Below are positions 4,347 to 10,580 of a DNA stretch of 10,580 bases, piece by piece; the stretch's first letter is position 1; each line of letters begins with the position of its first letter. The notes below the pieces were generated by a model. That model saw only the letters and a list, made by a program, of their open reading frames with translations, had not been told where the DNA came from and ran no database searches. Made by a program: the position numbers and the translations under genes. The stretch is from a virus (taxonomy: Duplodnaviria; Heunggongvirae; Uroviricota; Caudoviricetes): the IMG/VR virus record IMGVR_UViG_2602041863_000006; one strand, 5' to 3'.

Positions 4347-6551
4347 TTACGTGTCGAGAGAAATTTGTGTGCGCAGTTGAATAGGATTCAGAATTGTATA
4401 TCGCTGGCGAATAACATTATATAAATCAAAGTCTTTTACCCTTACGCTTATTACCATCGCATATTGCATATCAGGGGCTGAAACTCCCTTAACATGGCGC
4501 GAAGAATCTCGGGCATGATACCGTATATCAAAAACTGGATCGCTTAATAATGTATCAGCACTGAACTTTTTGCTTCTGTGCAAACAAGTTTCCCACTTAT
4601 GACCTTCACTCCTACACTCCCTTTCAGTCTTATACTGGCTTTTTTGACCAAAGAAATCATCTGTATCGGTATCGTCAAGGCCGAATCTTGGGCGGAAAGT
4701 TACCTGCATACCGGCCCTTGTATAGTTTACTGAATGTTCAGGATCTACTGGGGTTTGAATGCATAAAGTAGCGGTAAGCTCAAATGCTTCGTCAAAGGGA
4801 ACATCAGGGAATGGGATCGGTGCCCTTAAATATTTATTTTTTGCTAATGAACCATAGTAAATTACTGTAGCAGTATCATTTGGACAATCGATTAAAACGT
4901 TAGGATCCTCACTAAACCGTCCCCAACCGATATGTTCACGCGAATATTTTCTTGATGTTTCAGCATGATGAACAAGCAACGCTTTCAATGCAATGGTGTT
5001 CAATGGAGTTCCTGATAGAGCCGCAACTCCAGCGGCCGTTCTCAATGCTAATGGAGAGGCATAACTGGTTCCTTGAACTCCAACTATAGAACCAAGCAAA
5101 GGGTTGTAAGTGTAAAAAGGCTCGTCGTCGCTTCCACCAAAAATAACACCATCAGGTTTAACGAATCCGGGGCTTCTGCCTGGGCCAATACAGCTATATG
5201 GTGCCCGCCCCCATTTTTCACCGCTACGATCAGCAGCACCAATCGCTAGCGCGTTTACCATATCGGAAGGAGGTTGTATTCTCGCTGCATCACCGTCCTC
5301 ATTGCCATCATTCCCAACAGCAACAGTAAGTAATATCCCATGCTTAGCACAGATTTGGTCTAAAACAGCAGTCCATACATGAACCTCATCATCACCAATT
5401 GGAAGATGAGGACCAATACTTAGATTAGCGAACTTATAGTCACCACTATCAAGAACGGACTGTATTTTCTTAAGGACATCAAATAAATCCCAATTGCCAT
5501 TGTCACCTGATGTCGGTGAAAGAACTCTATAATGATCTACATTCATAAACGGTCTTTTAAAAGAAGGTGCATTTTCCTCGACACGTCCGAATAAGAAAGT
5601 GGATGTTACTTCATTACCGTGCTGCAATAATAATCCGCTTGTTTCTTTGGTGTCTGGATACACGTATTCCGTAACCCAATTACTCAAGTCAGCTGTCCCC
5701 AAGCCACCATCAAAAATGGCAATACGTTCGGATTCAAGAACAGCTTTAGAATTAGGGAGCTCCGGTGTAACTATATTAGATAACTTTCTGACAATGTTCG
5801 GCTGAGTACACCTGAGAGACGGCATCGGCCGCACAACGCGGATTAATGAAAAATCGAGTGTTTTTTTCATATCTTCAGGTCGCGCGTGTGCAACGATGAA
5901 AGTCAGTCCACCAACTTGGATTCTACTTTTGTAATCAACAGAGACACCATATTGTGCCGCATAGCTAATATAGGCTTTAACGATATCATCGTCTTCAACC
6001 CCAGCATGAAGAACCACTTCAAATTTTATCAAATCACTTTTCGCATGCTCAAAATTGCGTGCTCTCTCTTTTCCTTCAAAAAAGCTAACACTTTCAATTT
6101 CGATCAAATCCTTTTGTACGCCCTTCGGAGCTGTAGGGGAATTTAAAATTTCCTTAAATCTTATAACGGCATCATCATCACCGCTAACAAACAGTTGCGC
6201 CGTTACTAAGTCCTTATTCTGATCGCACTGACGTGCCGCTTTCCGTGGGCGAATGATTACCTGACGGCTACCGACATCCCGTAAACCTGTCGCTCTAAGT
6301 AATCCTTCCGGAAAGTAGCTTTTACCCAAAAACGCTGGGTGTAAAGTTAAATTGAATACACTCTCCCCCCTTGGCTTAGCCGCATCATCCAAACTGCGAA
6401 AGCGTGAGAGTAAAGTATCAATCTCTGGGTTTAAATGCTCCCTTACTTCTTCAAGAGTATAGGGATAGCGCTTACCATCCCTTCCTTTAGGCAAAGGTTC
6501 CTTTTTTGTCAGAACATGACCGTTACCTAAAAGTAAGTTCCTTTCCATCAT
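4347..6551 (-). CDS. ietS: Subtilisin-like (S8) serine peptidase, 734 aa, with a ~270-aa N-terminal region and ~200-aa C-terminal region of unknown function; candidate effector of an IetAS-like defence pair
   Basis: Catalytic triad motifs in subtilase order and spacing: Asp in IAIFDGGLG (D281), His in LLQHGNEVTS (H311), oxyanion Asn in AVGNDGN (N414), Ser in GTSYASPLAL (S496, codon complement of 5064-5066). The start ATG overlaps the upstream ATPase stop (ATGATG, 6546-6551) with GGGGG 8 nt upstream. AT-rich codon usage unlike the flanking phage genes. Gene symbol is from recall of the Gao et al. 2020 system and is unverified. Confidence 0.85.
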   Translation of the reverse strand: MMERNLLLGNGHVLTKKEPLPKGRDGKRYPYTLEEVREHLNPEIDTLLSRFRSLDDAAKPRGESVFNLTLHPAFLGKSYFPEGLLRATGLRDVGSRQVIIRPRKAARQCDQNKDLVTAQLFVSGDDDAVIRFKEILNSPTAPKGVQKDLIEIESVSFFEGKERARNFEHAKSDLIKFEVVLHAGVEDDDIVKAYISYAAQYGVSVDYKSRIQVGGLTFIVAHARPEDMKKTLDFSLIRVVRPMPSLRCTQPNIVRKLSNIVTPELPNSKAVLESERIAIFDGGLGTADLSNWVTEYVYPDTKETSGLLLQHGNEVTSTFLFGRVEENAPSFKRPFMNVDHYRVLSPTSGDNGNWDLFDVLKKIQSVLDSGDYKFANLSIGPHLPIGDDEVHVWTAVLDQICAKHGILLTVAVGNDGNEDGDAARIQPPSDMVNALAIGAADRSGEKWGRAPYSCIGPGRSPGFVKPDGVIFGGSDDEPFYTYNPLLGSIVGVQGTSYASPLALRTAAGVAALSGTPLNTIALKALLVHHAETSRKYSREHIGWGRFSEDPNVLIDCPNDTATVIYYGSLAKNKYLRAPIPFPDVPFDEAFELTATLCIQTPVDPEHSVNYTRAGMQVTFRPRFGLDDTDTDDFFGQKSQYKTERECRSEGHKWETCLHRSKKFSADTLLSDPVFDIRYHARDSSRHVKGVSAPDMQYAMVISVRVKDFDLYNVIRQRYTILNPIQLRTQISLDT

Positions 6552-7630
6552 TTAATCCCCCACTTTTGTAATTTATTCGCGATTGTTGGATGTGAAACAC
6601 CAACTAATTCAGCTATCTTCCTATTTGAAAAACCGTCAAAATGATATTTAATTATATTGAGATCATTATCGCTAAATTCATCCAATGAAACCCTCTCCGT
6701 AATTACGGCTTCTATTAATGAGCTTTCAAATGGAATATTTCTAAGTACCTCATTCTTTTTGGAGAAATTCAAAATACGGTTAATGATGGCAAAGGACATG
6801 CCATCTAATAATGGTGCAAGTTTTTTAGATAGTTCAGGTTCAATATTATGATTGACTAAATATCTATCTATCAGTTCTACTGATGGCATATTAAATTTAA
6901 GGATGTGCTCAAATCGACGCCAAACAGCCGGATCTAAGATATCAGGGTGATTAGTCGCAGCAACAAGAAGCGAGGTCGCTGGCCACTCATCTATGGTCTG
7001 TAGGAGTACAGTAACTAAACGTTTTAATTCTCCAACGTCCCTGTCATCATCACGTCTTTTTGCAACAGCATCAAATTCATCAAGCAAAAGGACACATGGT
7101 TTCTCTTTGGCATAATCCATAACGGATTTAATATTATTACCTGTTTTTCCCAAAAGAGAACTCATTACAGATGAGAGATCCAATGTTAAAAGAGGTAAAT
7201 TTAACTTTGCAGCAAGCCAATGTGCGGACATTGTTTTGCCTACGCCTGGCGGGCCAGAAAGTAAAACCGTCTTCACAGGTTCAAGACCAGCTTTGAACAA
7301 AGAAACAGCATTCTCTCTTTCGTTAACAATTGACTCCAGCTTCTTTGAGATATCCGTATTCCATACAGGTTCTTCAACAATTGCGTTGACAGATGTTTCC
7401 TGCAAAAGGTTTCGTCTGGAGTCTCCATCCACAGGCATAGGAGCCTTACTAGATGCCCCACGTAATACTGTTCCCTCAGCAATTAACGAAGCCAGCTTAG
7501 AAGCTAAAGCCTCATCATTTTTACGGATGTTGTTAATCATCTTTCTGCATAGGAGTGTAAATGCATTTGCGTTGCCTTTGATGCCTTGCTCGATGAGTTT
7601 GAAAAGTTCATCCTCCCTCACGTTTACCAT
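6548..7630 (-). CDS. ietA: AAA+ ATPase (classical AAA clade) with C-terminal helix-turn-helix; candidate ATPase partner of an IetAS-like defence pair
   Basis: Walker A GPPGVGKT (complement of 7232-7255), Walker B VLLLDEFD, sensor and Arg-rich segment (ATNHPDILDPAVWRRFE), C-terminal HTH-like NRKIAELVGVSHPTIANKLQK. Preferred start is the ATG at 7630 (MVNVRE...), which has GGGGG upstream; the ORF-track start at 7675 has no Shine-Dalgarno. Gene symbol is from recall and is unverified. Confidence 0.85.
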   Translation of the reverse strand: MVNVREDELFKLIEQGIKGNANAFTLLCRKMINNIRKNDEALASKLASLIAEGTVLRGASSKAPMPVDGDSRRNLLQETSVNAIVEEPVWNTDISKKLESIVNERENAVSLFKAGLEPVKTVLLSGPPGVGKTMSAHWLAAKLNLPLLTLDLSSVMSSLLGKTGNNIKSVMDYAKEKPCVLLLDEFDAVAKRRDDDRDVGELKRLVTVLLQTIDEWPATSLLVAATNHPDILDPAVWRRFEHILKFNMPSVELIDRYLVNHNIEPELSKKLAPLLDGMSFAIINRILNFSKKNEVLRNIPFESSLIEAVITERVSLDEFSDNDLNIIKYHFDGFSNRKIAELVGVSHPTIANKLQKWGIK

Positions 7631-7934
7631 AAAACCCCCAATAAAACATAAGCTTGTGTAAGCTGGTAACTGCATTGATGAAAATCAGTGCCTAATGTTA
7701 CCACTCTTGCTGGCGTTATTCAAAGAGTATCCTCACTTTTTTACTGTATGGATAATCAGCATAAAATCTATCCAGTTGGGTTACTCGAACATATTGTCAA
7801 TACTTGTTTCCAACGATTGATCAGTTCTACAGTTTTATCTCCTTCACTTGTGTTGGCAGCATGCTTATTCCTGAACCAGCTCGATTACTTGGCCATTTGA
7901 GAAAGATGTGTAGATCTTCTGATGGTTTGTATTG

Positions 7935-7965
7935 GAACGGGGTGCATAGTGATTTGCACCCCGTT
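7935..7965. other. GC-rich inverted repeat between parR and the AT-rich island; possible bidirectional terminator or boundary element
   Basis: AACGGGGTGCA-tagtgattt-TGCACCCCGTT, followed on the + strand by TCTTTATGTT. A second short palindrome CAGGGCG-aata-CGCCCTG at 7988-8005 sits just past the parR stop. Confidence 0.35.
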
Positions 7966-8008
7966 CTTTATGTTATGGGATTGGTGGCAGGGCGAATACG
8001 CCCTGATG

Positions 8009-8320
8009 TTATTCAGGAAATAACGCCCGGATATTTCCGGCCATCTGACTGGTTATCTGTGCGGTTGGTACTGGCTGTGACTCGGGGCGTTCTGTCCTGG
8101 TTTGTGTCACTGATAACGTCTCATCGTCAGCCCATGCAGCCAGTCGGTAAGCCTCTGCCGGATTCATTTTCAGAAGTGCCAGCCCGGCCAGAAAAGCCAC
8201 GCGTTGGCCGCTTTTGCGGGCTTCTGGTGTAAGGCTGTCCAGCCATGTGCATGCTTCGCCTTCGTTCTTGACGGCGGCGGGCTTCAGATAGAAACTTATC
8301 CGTCTGGTTGGTGTCGTCAT
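8009..8320 (-). CDS. parR: ParR-like small centromere-binding protein (103 aa)
   Basis: ATG at 8320..8318 preceded by AAGGAG; starts 4 nt after the parM stop, as in plasmid R1 parM-parR. Weak similarity to R1 ParR in the N-terminal part (RRISFYLKP...GLALL). The ORF-track start at 8455 overlaps parM and is rejected. Confidence 0.6.
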   Translation of the reverse strand: MTTPTRRISFYLKPAAVKNEGEACTWLDSLTPEARKSGQRVAFLAGLALLKMNPAEAYRLAAWADDETLSVTQTRTERPESQPVPTAQITSQMAGNIRALFPE

Positions 8321-8324
8321 TGGT

Positions 8325-9284
8325 TTACTCCTTGTCCATTGCGTACAGCCCATTAACCAGAGCAAACTGTGGCACTCCGTCCGCGATGAAAGTCGCATTA
8401 ACTCCGCAGGCTTCGCGGATAGCGGGTGCCACAATCTCCGCCCCTCCACCGACAACCATCACCCGCCCGTAACCCGAAAAAACCGCCAGCGCGCGGATCA
8501 CGCGTTGTTTCAGTGTTTCTTCCTTTTCACGAATAACCGCCATCAGGCTGTTGTAATGCGCGTCATTGTGGATGTGCCGGCGCAGCCAGGCTTCATCATG
8601 GCGATGTTCGATAATGGTATTGGCGATGTGGTGACTGGTACGCATACCGTTAGTGGCCATCACCGACAGTACGGCATCGGCCATCAGGGAAACGCCTACG
8701 TGTGGATCGCAAAACACCTGGCTGATACCTGCCAGTTGTCCCTGAACCTTTGCCACATCCAGCGTGGTTCCTCCTAAATCCACAATCAGCAGGGATTCAA
8801 ACGGACTCATGTCAGCCAGTGCTTTAAAGCCAGCCGGAATGGATTCAGGCATAACCCGCACGTTACGGATAGTGAATGCCTCACCGTTCTGGTACTCCAC
8901 CGGGCGCATAACGTTCGCTTTTTTGCGGTTGATGTTGGCCATGTCCGGCTGTGCGTTTGTGTCGAAATATTCGCTCAGTGGCAGGGTGACAACCACATCC
9001 ACCTCCTGTGGTGTGATGCCTGATTTGACCAGCGCGTGGTGAATGGCGATTACATTCACATCGCTGTACTGGTATTGCGTGTCGGTTGTCTGGACAAAGC
9101 GATCGCTGACCGGATCAAAACCATAGCGCACGCCATCAAGCATGTAGTTCGCAGGCTGCGAGCCGCCGAACGGCGCAGACCATTCCGACTTGAAGCTGTT
9201 CGGGCTGATGGCGTTGCGGCGTTCGCCGTTCTCAGTCCATGCCAGCTTGATGTTGGTGGAGCCGTCGTCGATACAAATTTTCAT
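8325..9284 (-). CDS. parM: ParM/StbA-like actin-type plasmid segregation ATPase (319 aa)
   Basis: N-terminus MKICIDDGSTNIKLAW...ISPNSFKSEW...YQYSDVNVIAIHHAL closely resembles plasmid R1 ParM (from recall). Size matches R1 ParM (~320 aa). AGGAAA Shine-Dalgarno 6 nt upstream of the ATG. Confidence 0.85.
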   Translation of the reverse strand: MKICIDDGSTNIKLAWTENGERRNAISPNSFKSEWSAPFGGSQPANYMLDGVRYGFDPVSDRFVQTTDTQYQYSDVNVIAIHHALVKSGITPQEVDVVVTLPLSEYFDTNAQPDMANINRKKANVMRPVEYQNGEAFTIRNVRVMPESIPAGFKALADMSPFESLLIVDLGGTTLDVAKVQGQLAGISQVFCDPHVGVSLMADAVLSVMATNGMRTSHHIANTIIEHRHDEAWLRRHIHNDAHYNSLMAVIREKEETLKQRVIRALAVFSGYGRVMVVGGGAEIVAPAIREACGVNATFIADGVPQFALVNGLYAMDKE

Positions 9285-9310
9285 GTCGATTTTCCTTATG
9301 TTGATTAATT

Positions 9311-9430
9311 AATCGTTTACGGGATTTTTAAATCCCGTTTTTGCCTGTTTTATGCTTGCTTCATATATCGCGGCGCGTTTTTTGCTCATTTACGGGTTTT
9401 GTGAATCCCGTTTCTGTCTGTTTTTTGTTT
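9311..9430. repeat. parC-like centromere and promoter region: two ~36-bp direct repeats 73 bp apart, each containing an ACGGG...CCCGT inverted repeat
   Basis: Repeat 1 TTTACGGGATTTTTAAATCCCGTTTTTGCCTGTTTT (around 9316-9351); repeat 2 TTTACGGGTTTTGTGAATCCCGTTTCTGTCTGTTTT (around 9388-9424). The perfect palindrome ACGGGATTT-tt-AAATCCCGT at 9319-9338 overlaps a plausible minus-strand promoter for parM (-35 TTTAAA, -10 TAATTA). Repeat 2 lies inside the 3' end of the upstream ORF. Confidence 0.5.
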
Positions 9431-10580
9431 CCACTGGTCAGGCCACCCCGCAGCAGGTCTGCTTTGCGGCGGGCGCGTTCAGTGGTTTCACTGATTCTCT
9501 GTGCGTGCTCTGCGTCGCGGATGGCGCGCAGCATGTCAGAAAGCACTGTAACGGGTGTTTTCATGGTGTTCTGGTCCTGCTGAAGTGTGGATGCCAGGCG
9601 TGCGGCGGCTTCGGGGTCTGATGTCCCGAGCTGTGCCAGATAGCTGGCGACCGGGTTATGGCGGATCTCCGTGCTGCTTACGCCGTGATTACGGCTCAAG
9701 TGCTGCCAGAGCTGCGTGATTCGGCTGTCCGGGCGGGTATCCGGTTTGCGTACAATTTCAAATCCCTGCGGTGCAATGATGCTGCCGTCGACGTACAGAC
9801 TGCCGCCCCGTAACAGGTGCTGCATCTGCTGTTCACCGATATGCAGGCCAAGGGATTCAGCAGACTCCCGCCATTCTTTAGCGAGTAACTCGTGGTTATC
9901 AGGCAAAGGCCGCGGCTGTTTGCGGCTCTGCGTCCAGTTCTGCATTTCATCACTGCTGTTTTTGGCCTGTTTGTCACGCAGCGAACGCATCAGCGCCCGG
10001 CGTTCGTGCCGTTTCAGTGAGCGCATCCATTCGTTCACTTCAACGCCGTCAGGGAGCTGCGGCCACGGTGTTGTCCGTTCTTCCGGCTGTTCTGTCCCGT
10101 TGTTGTCTGTTTCCTGTACACGGGGACAGTTATTGCCACGAGTCCAAGGGGCGGCAGGGCCGCCCTGAAGGTCAAAACCATTTTCGCGGGCGCTGTCTTC
10201 CGCTTCCTGTTTTCGTCTTACCAGCTTCCAGTTATCCGGATTCGTGCACACACGGGAGGATTCCCCGATGAGTGGCGACCAGATCCCGTAAATCTGTACG
10301 CCCTGTTCGCCGTAATCGTTCAGCTCATCTGCGAGGTCGTAGGCGGTGCGAATCAGGTAGTCTTTGCGTGGAACAAGTACGCCGCCCTGTTTCTCTATGT
10401 AGGTGGCAAAACATCCGGCATCAGCGGCAGCAAGAACCGCATCCATTGCGTCATCCTTCAGCCGTTGCGGGCCTTCGGGGTTGCGTGCCATCTGGCTGGC
10501 AAGGCGACGCAGTTCACGCCACACCTGACGGGAGGGGATACCAAAGAACTGGAACTGGCGGACCCGGTGAAGGCGCGCCC
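9361..10580 (-). CDS. Hypothetical protein, C-terminal ~406 codons (the 5' end is beyond the right window edge)
   Basis: The minus-strand frame is open from 10580 to the stop at 9361-9363; the ORF-track start at 10524 is an internal GTG. Contains a hydrophilic low-complexity linker (QEAEDSARENGFDLQGGPAAPWTRGNNCPRVQETDNNGTEQPEERTTPW). No motif I can name; function not assigned. Confidence 0.5.
   Translation of the reverse strand, partial: ARLHRVRQFQFFGIPSRQVWRELRRLASQMARNPEGPQRLKDDAMDAVLAAADAGCFATYIEKQGGVLVPRKDYLIRTAYDLADELNDYGEQGVQIYGIWSPLIGESSRVCTNPDNWKLVRRKQEAEDSARENGFDLQGGPAAPWTRGNNCPRVQETDNNGTEQPEERTTPWPQLPDGVEVNEWMRSLKRHERRALMRSLRDKQAKNSSDEMQNWTQSRKQPRPLPDNHELLAKEWRESAESLGLHIGEQQMQHLLRGGSLYVDGSIIAPQGFEIVRKPDTRPDSRITQLWQHLSRNHGVSSTEIRHNPVASYLAQLGTSDPEAAARLASTLQQDQNTMKTPVTVLSDMLRAIRDAEHAQRISETTERARRKADLLRGGLTSGNKKQTETGFTKPVNEQKTRRDI

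Follow-up and report, generated by a model that had tools for sequence, protein, structure and literature searches.

Paired palindromic repeats upstream of parM as the probable centromere-like site of a ParMRC cassette in P88-like prophages

The parMR Locus and Its Host Element

The window, that is, the whole stretch of 10,580 nt that was analyzed, belongs to a P88-like prophage (Xuanwuvirus, Peduoviridae, P2 family), with approximately 96% identity to phage P88 and other Xuanwuvirus. It is 100% identical to the chromosome of E. coli O6:H16 2014EL-1346-6, in which the prophage adjoins pheA. On the minus strand, the gene for the replication endonuclease gpA is followed by a pair of repeats, parM, parR and a variable cargo (here IetA/IetS), and the portal and terminase genes lie beyond the cargo on the opposite strand. 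The par cassette thus has replication gene A on one side and the variable cargo/portal region on the other. The first-pass annotation was made without knowledge that the element is an integrated P2-like prophage and not a plasmid. The 3′ part of the gpA-like gene (9361..10580, minus strand; 940 aa in the source genome) is outside the par system, and its last codons cross the distal repeat. The gap between gpA and parM measures 76 bp and holds the proximal repeat, the parM ATG being at 9284. The C-terminal ~140 aa of gpA (9361-9780) abut the candidate site and form a lineage-specific extension; no counterpart of these last ~140 residues was found by tblastn, the alignment of other P2-like gpA proteins to the 405-aa query fragment being confined to its residues 1-261.

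The region is present in 1308 of 5426 complete E. coli genomes (~24%), at 1454 chromosomal places and at 2 on plasmids. A circular sequence of 34,461 bp deposited as an E. coli plasmid (NZ_CP148288.1) is a complete P88-like genome with integrase, cox, gpA, and parMR; in this isolate, the circular phage form was abundant enough for assembly as a separate replicon. The prophage around the window (NZ_CP024232.1, 3292411-3318011) looks defective: the genes annotated there for the capsid scaffold (GPO) and for a virion morphogenesis protein are partial, and the annotations of this stretch include neither a major capsid nor a small terminase gene. The cargo of the window (4347-7675, minus strand) is an anti-phage defence pair formed by the AAA ATPase IetA (2.9e-89) and the S8 protease IetS (5.7e-41), and other members of the family carry HicAB, a KAP NTPase, DUF4760, or memP in the slot between gpA and the portal gene. 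Finally, a 226-kb contig labelled as belonging to the Firmicutes (NZ_JBQPOM010000071.1, 'Vagococcus sp. WN89Y') contains this enterobacterial prophage, with a ParM 97% identical to that of the window; this assembly is probably contaminated or mislabelled.

The ParM and ParR Proteins

The parM gene (8325..9284, minus strand) encodes an actin-like segregation ATPase of 319 aa with the Pfam domains StbA_N (2e-82) and ParM C-terminal (8e-69), and its product aligns over the full length with the R1 ParM structures (E = 2e-92). Its nucleotide diversity is 0.0057 at codon positions 1 and 2 vs. 0.050 at position 3, a pattern indicative of strong purifying selection across hundreds of prophages. Directly after parM lies the adaptor gene parR (8009..8320, minus strand), whose 103-aa product matches PF10784 (Plasmid_stab_B; 1.4e-24) and shows 33% identity to R1 ParR over 63 aa (residues 6-68; E = 1e-8, BLASTP). 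In this protein, a conserved part (residues ~1-65, including RRISFYLKP) is followed by a hypervariable linker and by eight conserved last residues, NIRALFPE. When more ParR sequences are aligned, the motif (K/R)xNAxxLFP near the C-terminus coincides with the C-terminus of R1 ParR, which in R1 is the ParM-binding peptide. The AF2 monomer model of ParR is of low confidence (pLDDT 54), with an unstructured N-terminus followed by helices at residues 20-29 and 32-52, and at this low confidence its secondary structure is compatible with a ribbon-helix-helix (RHH) fold.

The ParR alleles of E. coli share only ~50-97% identity, next to parM genes that are 95-99% identical. Alleles from 50% to 97% identity have in common an invariant N-terminus and both classes are paired with the same cores in the repeats, as expected if this invariant N-terminus reads the DNA. 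With some phages (e.g., vB_EcoM-705R2), DNA homology ends inside parR, at ~8266; this polymorphism points to a recombination boundary and to a hypervariable linker (residues ~65-95). With regard to plasmids, the identity of PLSDB ParM proteins to that of the window does not exceed 53% once prophage copies are set aside, and a tblastn search of plasmids with ParR returned prophage copies only. Judged by these sequence comparisons, the par genes of the window are a phage-specific lineage.

Anatomy of the Repeats

A repeat search delimits two direct repeats of 45 nt each on the minus strand, at 9313-9357 and 9386-9430, which are identical at 37 of 45 positions (82%) and whose starts are 73 bp apart. 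The two palindrome-bearing direct repeats of 36 bp that had been reported earlier (9317-9352 and 9390-9425) are contained within them, so that both the repeats and their 73-bp spacing, counted from start to start, have been borne out and the units extended. In order to estimate the role of chance, all ungapped pairs of 45 nt lying 45-200 bp apart were scored in the 10.6-kb window and in 200 dinucleotide-preserving shuffles. The repeat pair ranks first in the window, with 37 matches against a shuffle mean of 26.2 (sd 0.92; z ~12) and a shuffle maximum of 30 of 45, and therefore the repeats are real and not due to chance. No tandem array was found at the repeats by Tandem Repeats Finder; instead of the tandem direct iterons of 10-11 bp that characterize R1-type parC sites, two palindromes separated by 73 bp are present. 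An Rfam search of 7600-9700 gave zero matches.

Both repeats share the palindrome GGGATT-N4-AA(T/A)CCC, and the two repeat cores are the only core matches in the window. The proximal repeat (9313..9357; sense AAGCATAAAACAGGCAAAAACGGGATTTAAAAATCCCGTAAACGA) lies in the gpA-parM intergenic gap, ends 28 nt before the parM ATG and is kept in relatives. Its palindrome, ACGGGATTTTTAAATCCCGT, spans 9319-9338, and the core within it, GGGATTTTTAAATCCC (9321-9336), ends 36 nt before the ATG. The distal repeat (9386..9430; sense AAACAAAAAACAGACAGAAACGGGATTCACAAAACCCGTAAATGA) contains an imperfect palindrome, ACGGGTTTTGTGAATCCCGT, at 9392-9411; its core (9394-9409) has one mismatch to the consensus in the window, and the perfect core GGGATTCACAAATCCC is found in most relatives. 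The spacer between the repeats (9358..9385) varies in sequence and is constant in length. It contains the gpA stop codon (9361-9363), and the distal repeat therefore corresponds approximately to codons -8 to -23 of the gpA-like ORF, in accordance with the earlier placement of this copy inside the upstream ORF. Between the proximal repeat and parM, the leader (9285..9312, minus strand) carries an ATTAAT(N)AA block and the Shine-Dalgarno sequence AAGGA. This block, located 25-29 nt 5′ of the parM ATG, is invariant in four lineages that are otherwise poorly alignable.

The suggestion that the same DNA might be both coding and a binding site holds in the literal sense, but its coding side seems to be incidental. 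Translation passes through the core in the frame (x)CG GGA in both E. coli and Plesiomonas, in the frame CGG GAT in a Hafnia relative (L011) whose gpA stop falls inside the palindrome, and in the frame GGG ATT in a second Hafnia relative (L191), where the core is within an unrelated ORF of 167 aa. All three frames are in use and the resulting C-terminal peptides are unrelated across relatives; therefore, DNA is the conserved object. Since the peptide is not conserved and its frame is free to change, the overlap of the distal repeat with the gpA ORF looks like a by-product, in which the upstream ORF would simply run on into the cis element until a stop codon is reached. The locus may also serve as a neat case in which the end of an upstream ORF has come to cover a cis element, the peptide being immaterial.

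Association of the Repeats with parM

The association of the cores with parM has been addressed with the exact pattern GGGATT-N4-AATCCC, 52-62 nt, GGGATT-N4-AATCCC, which was scanned over 2.9 million IMG/VR contigs. Among the 93 matches, 92 are accompanied by a ParM of the window family (tblastn), typically beginning 36 nt downstream, and the remaining one (L086) adjoins a parM stub of ~18 codons, with both repeats intact upstream of the stub. In another locus (L079), tblastn finds only residues 1-25 of ParM and 75-103 of ParR, consistent with a deletion scar similar to that of L086. In every IMG/VR match, the two-core pattern is a neighbour of the window ParM family, and in the P88 genome (35.8 kb) the only two core matches are those at the repeats. 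Because these 93 loci had been picked by the pattern and are biased for estimates of variability, a second, unbiased sample of 90 parM loci was drawn by the ParM protein alone. It yielded 55 unique upstream sequences, of which 54 contain two cores and 52 have the spacing of 73 bp. The one exception is L126 (IMGVR_UViG_2657245439_000011). In this sequence, an exact deletion of 73 bp has left one hybrid repeat and altered the gpA C-terminus, and it looks like the product of unequal recombination between the repeat copies. A scan of genome contigs yielded only 3 close loci.

The immediate upstream neighbour is a different gene in three relatives (L176, L191, and L194), and the cores adjoin parM even where gpA ends at a distance of 0.4-1.1 kb or an additional ORF has come between. 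In fact, the cores follow parM and not gpA, as they stay with it despite the different upstream gene. In L176, for example, a different ORF of 155 aa precedes parM and the first position of the distal repeat is exactly where homology to the window sets in again, which places both repeats inside the par cassette. The earlier identification of parM and parR and of a parC-like placement of the repeats is supported, both by the matches of the proteins to R1 ParM (E = 2e-92) and PF10784 (1.4e-24) and by the fact that the repeats travel with parM across lineages.

Conservation in Close and Distant Relatives

In the close E. coli family, the diversity of the core arms is 0.044 vs. 0.050 at the third codon positions of parM, and 0.18 in the 4-bp centres. 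No extra constraint on the core arms was detectable within this family (0.044 vs. 0.050), and the evidence for constraint therefore comes from a few deeper lineages. Among the 55 unique relatives, substitutions in one arm are frequent and none is compensated in the other. This pattern speaks against a hairpin under selection and is in keeping with a protein site.

The first of the deeper lineages is Hafnia L011, whose ParR is 74% identical to that of the window. Between E. coli and this relative, the arms are identical at 23 of 24 positions, compared with 221 of 319 third positions of parM (Fisher p = 0.002), and a 1-nt insertion compensated by a deletion in the spacer keeps the spacing at 73 bp. 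The spacer of this relative appeared unusually divergent, with 43% identity, in an ungapped MAFFT alignment, but this impression was discarded because identity rises to ~70% when the indel pair is gapped. In Hafnia L191 (ParM 62% identical), a P2-like prophage with parM between gpA and portal, the cores GGGATTGAGGAAACCC and GGGTTCATTAAATCCC are 73 bp apart and are the only matches in 6.9 kb. In Plesiomonas L192 (ParM 62% identical, same genomic slot), CGGGACAACA..AACCC occurs twice at a distance of 72 bp, with 0.02 chance matches expected for the pattern CGGGA-N8-ACCC. A third exact match to this pattern, CGGGATAACTTTTACCC, lies in the portal gene of this relative (5730-5746; 0.02 expected in the locus) and could be either an extra ParR site or a coincidence. 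When the five sequences are aligned, GGGA...CCC is invariant in both sites and the flanks are poorly conserved.

Another arrangement is found in Serratia and Enterobacter relatives (ParM 54-58% identical), which are also P2-like prophages. They have in common the leader AACAGGCAAAAACGGGA or GGGAAC half-sites, laid out as one large inverted repeat with GGGAAC/GTTCCC ends, and the two-core architecture is therefore not universal. The parMR genes are nonetheless found in the same slot of the P2-like prophages of Hafnia, Plesiomonas, Serratia, and Enterobacter.

Transcription Signals around parMR

A consensus scan found no sigma-70 promoter on the gene strand, either in the window or in phage P88. 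The first-pass annotation had described the first repeat as overlapping the likely parM promoter, and this is still an assumption; its proposal of ParR autoregulation is likewise unsupported, no consensus promoter having been found. By eye, only weak candidates are visible, namely ATGAGC-16-TATATG between the repeats and the invariant ATTAAT block before the ribosome binding site, which makes a poor -10 hexamer. The TGT-N12-ACA dyad of P2 late promoters is absent. Alternatively, transcription of the phage early operon (cox ... A) may simply continue into parMR, and this would tie its expression to the times at which the phage is extrachromosomal.

On the other side of parR, the palindrome that had been likened to the repeats is a real and perfect inverted repeat of 12 bp (7935-7966; GAACGGGGTGCA-N8-TGCACCCCGTTC), which folds at -25 kcal/mol and is followed on the plus strand by a T-rich tail, but it is unrelated to them. 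It belongs to the variable cargo region and occurs in just 13 of ~190 fetched loci; in Shae_phiSM, it begins 22 nt past the stop codon of the convergent cargo gene memP. Its candidacy as a second ParR site was rejected, as it is rare, has no GGGATT/AATCCC core and forms a strong terminator-like hairpin after a convergent gene; it is probably an intrinsic terminator of the cargo region. A separate small hairpin, CAGGGCGAATACGCCCTG (7988-8005), starts 3 nt past the parR stop codon and is terminator-like only on the strand opposite parR; P88 has the corresponding hairpin at 10137-10160.

Alternative Explanations

Several functions other than a centromere might be ascribed to the repeats. They could be operators of ParR and nothing else, acting in autoregulation or as a roadblock to read-through, with no role in segregation and in a cassette that is the decaying relic of a plasmid within a chromosomal prophage. 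The overwhelmingly chromosomal location, the presence of just two sites and the defective state of the prophage of the window, with its partial capsid scaffold and morphogenesis genes, would agree with this reading, which is nevertheless unlikely. A relic is difficult to reconcile with the purifying selection on parM (0.0057 vs. 0.050) or with the ParR C-terminal tail, conserved in all alleles and aligned with the C-terminus of R1 ParR; moreover, the occurrence of parMR in the same slot of Hafnia, Plesiomonas, Serratia, and Enterobacter prophages speaks in favour of a function retained by the machine as a whole. Somewhat less probable is a cis element of phage replication (a gpA accessory site or origin), or the site of another regulator such as Cox, C, or IHF, unrelated to ParR. 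The P2/186 origin is located inside the A gene, one of the copies is inside gene A here, and the last ~140 residues of gpA are without counterpart in other P2-like gpA proteins. The cores are not tied to gene A as a P2-type origin or gpA site would be, though, since they stay by parM when gpA is 0.4-1.1 kb off or another gene is between (L191, L194, and L176), they are found nowhere else in the P88 genome and, in IMG/VR, the pattern never occurs away from the window ParM family.

The repeats could also be intrinsic terminators or insulators on the plus strand, each a hairpin with a T-rich run after it, which would stop antisense transcription from the cargo/late-gene side into gene A. A consensus scan does flag 9319-9338 on the plus strand of the window and, in P88, the two copies on the equivalent strand; the plus-strand tails are TTTTTGCCTGTTTT and TTTCTGTCTGTTTTTTG. 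This role is very improbable given that the hairpins are weak (-10.4 and -6.3 kcal/mol; z = -2.3 and -1.2 vs. shuffles) and that no compensatory change accompanies the many one-arm substitutions of the 55 unique relatives. In Plesiomonas, the stem is down to the 4 bp CGGG/CCCG, and half-sites and spacing are retained; the exact conservation of a 73-bp spacing would not be expected of terminators either. A stable GC-rich hairpin before a U-run, maintained in relatives, would be expected of a rho-independent terminator, and the hairpins of the repeats are neither stable nor maintained. That the repeats are a functionless duplication scar can be given hardly any weight: the arm diversity at the synonymous level within the family and the existence of a single-copy deletion variant are what a scar would produce, but cores and a spacing of 72-73 bp have been retained where the surrounding sequence can barely be aligned.

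A Putative parC for Phage DNA

The repeats are probably the centromere-like parC of a type II ParMRC partition cassette carried by a P88-like prophage. Comparison with R1 and IncL/M plasmids supports this reading, as the position and the two-block architecture of the repeats match those of known parC sites, and the repeats are linked to parM exclusively. We infer that ParR binds these sites. ParR dimers would read the GGGATT/AATCCC half-sites, and probably also the A-rich 5′ leader AACAGRCARAAC, by means of the conserved N-terminal domain, for which the family suggests an RHH fold with RRISFYLKP as the beta-strand. At a distance of 73 bp, or seven helical turns, the two sites would be on the same face of the DNA and could thus form one nucleoprotein complex. 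The NIRALFPE tail of ParR would then capture growing ParM filaments, by which the phage DNA circles would be moved apart. Given that integration is the normal course for the phage, the substrate of the system would be the extrachromosomal form, be it between infection and integration, following excision or in the course of replication, or as an episome that arises occasionally. Against the assignment as parC, there are only two sites and no tandem array, far fewer than the ten iterons of R1, and one of the repeats has been lost in a natural variant (L126). Furthermore, 1454 of the 1456 places in E. coli are chromosomal, so that a lysogen offers no obvious partition substrate.

More tentatively, the P88-like and other P2-family prophages of Enterobacterales might use ParMRC on their own DNA circles, with the two-palindrome parC as a handle, although this proposal falls somewhat short of an even chance. 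The circles could be maintained as a heritable episome, as in a facultative phage-plasmid, or the system could serve positioning or segregation after induction, in a way resembling AlpAC of the prophage CGP3. No functional studies of ParM in P2-like or P88 prophages, or of the repeats as a cis site, were found in the literature. If true, such a role would amount to a very common and unstudied use of a bacterial cytoskeleton by a phage, given that ~24% of complete E. coli genomes contain the element. The arrangement itself is the expected one in an unusual host element, and the main interest lies in what ParMRC does for a common integrating phage. The repeats provide a concrete, testable candidate centromere for ParMRC at a conserved position between gene A and portal in the P2-like prophages of at least five genera; with the cis site known, direct tests for a stage with episomal or actively positioned prophage DNA can be made. 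Partition systems on integrating elements are known in few cases, such as the SXT/R391 ICEs and CGP3.

Comparison with Known Partition Systems

The closest model is the parMRC system of plasmid R1/NR1 (stbAB), with a ParM ~50% identical to that of the window and a ParR of the same Pfam family that can be aligned in its N-terminal domain and C-terminal tail. In both systems, the cis site is directly upstream of parM and consists of two similar blocks, which in R1 measure 43 nt and are 94 bp apart. By our own reading of the sequence, the R1 blocks are rich in AAACCC-type units that resemble the AA(A/T)CCC half-site of the window. The parC of R1 comprises ten 11-bp direct iterons flanking a clear promoter, whereas the window has two palindromes of 16-20 bp without a tandem array or a recognizable promoter, its distal block is inside an ORF, and its host element is an integrating phage. 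Another related system is the parMR of IncL/M plasmids (e.g., p24A17014B_A_KPC), in which ParM is 52.6% identical to that of the window and two blocks upstream of parM are likewise exactly 73 bp apart from start to start. Unlike those of the window, the IncL/M blocks are made of T-rich direct iterons of ~10 bp (CGGTATTTTTCT) that flank a good promoter of the TTTACA/TAATAAT type, and the host is a true plasmid. Each block of the window thus has one palindrome and an A-rich leader, in contrast with the tandem iterons of 10-11 bp of R1 and IncL/M.

Partition on elements that normally reside in the chromosome has been described in the SXT/R391 ICEs, whose srpMRC is a ParM-type system (PMC4489591). 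In these elements, the centromere-like srpC is located upstream of srpM and contains direct and inverted repeats to which SrpR binds, and the circle that exists transiently after excision is stabilised by it (PMC4489591). On the other hand, SrpR does not resemble the ParR proteins known so far, the SetCD activator of the element controls expression, and the element is conjugative and not a phage (PMC4489591). In the prophage CGP3 of Corynebacterium glutamicum, the AlpAC/alpS system is switched on early upon excision, and the phage DNA depends on it for efficient replication (PMC4446434). It differs from the window in its distant actin-like protein and adaptor, its 24 short TTAAnnG repeats and its Gram-positive host (PMC4446434). 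By analogy, srpMRC (PMC4489591) and AlpAC (PMC4446434) can be regarded as earlier cases of an integrating element equipped with a partition or actin-like system, and the repeats and par cassette of the window are an uncharacterised member of the known ParMRC type.
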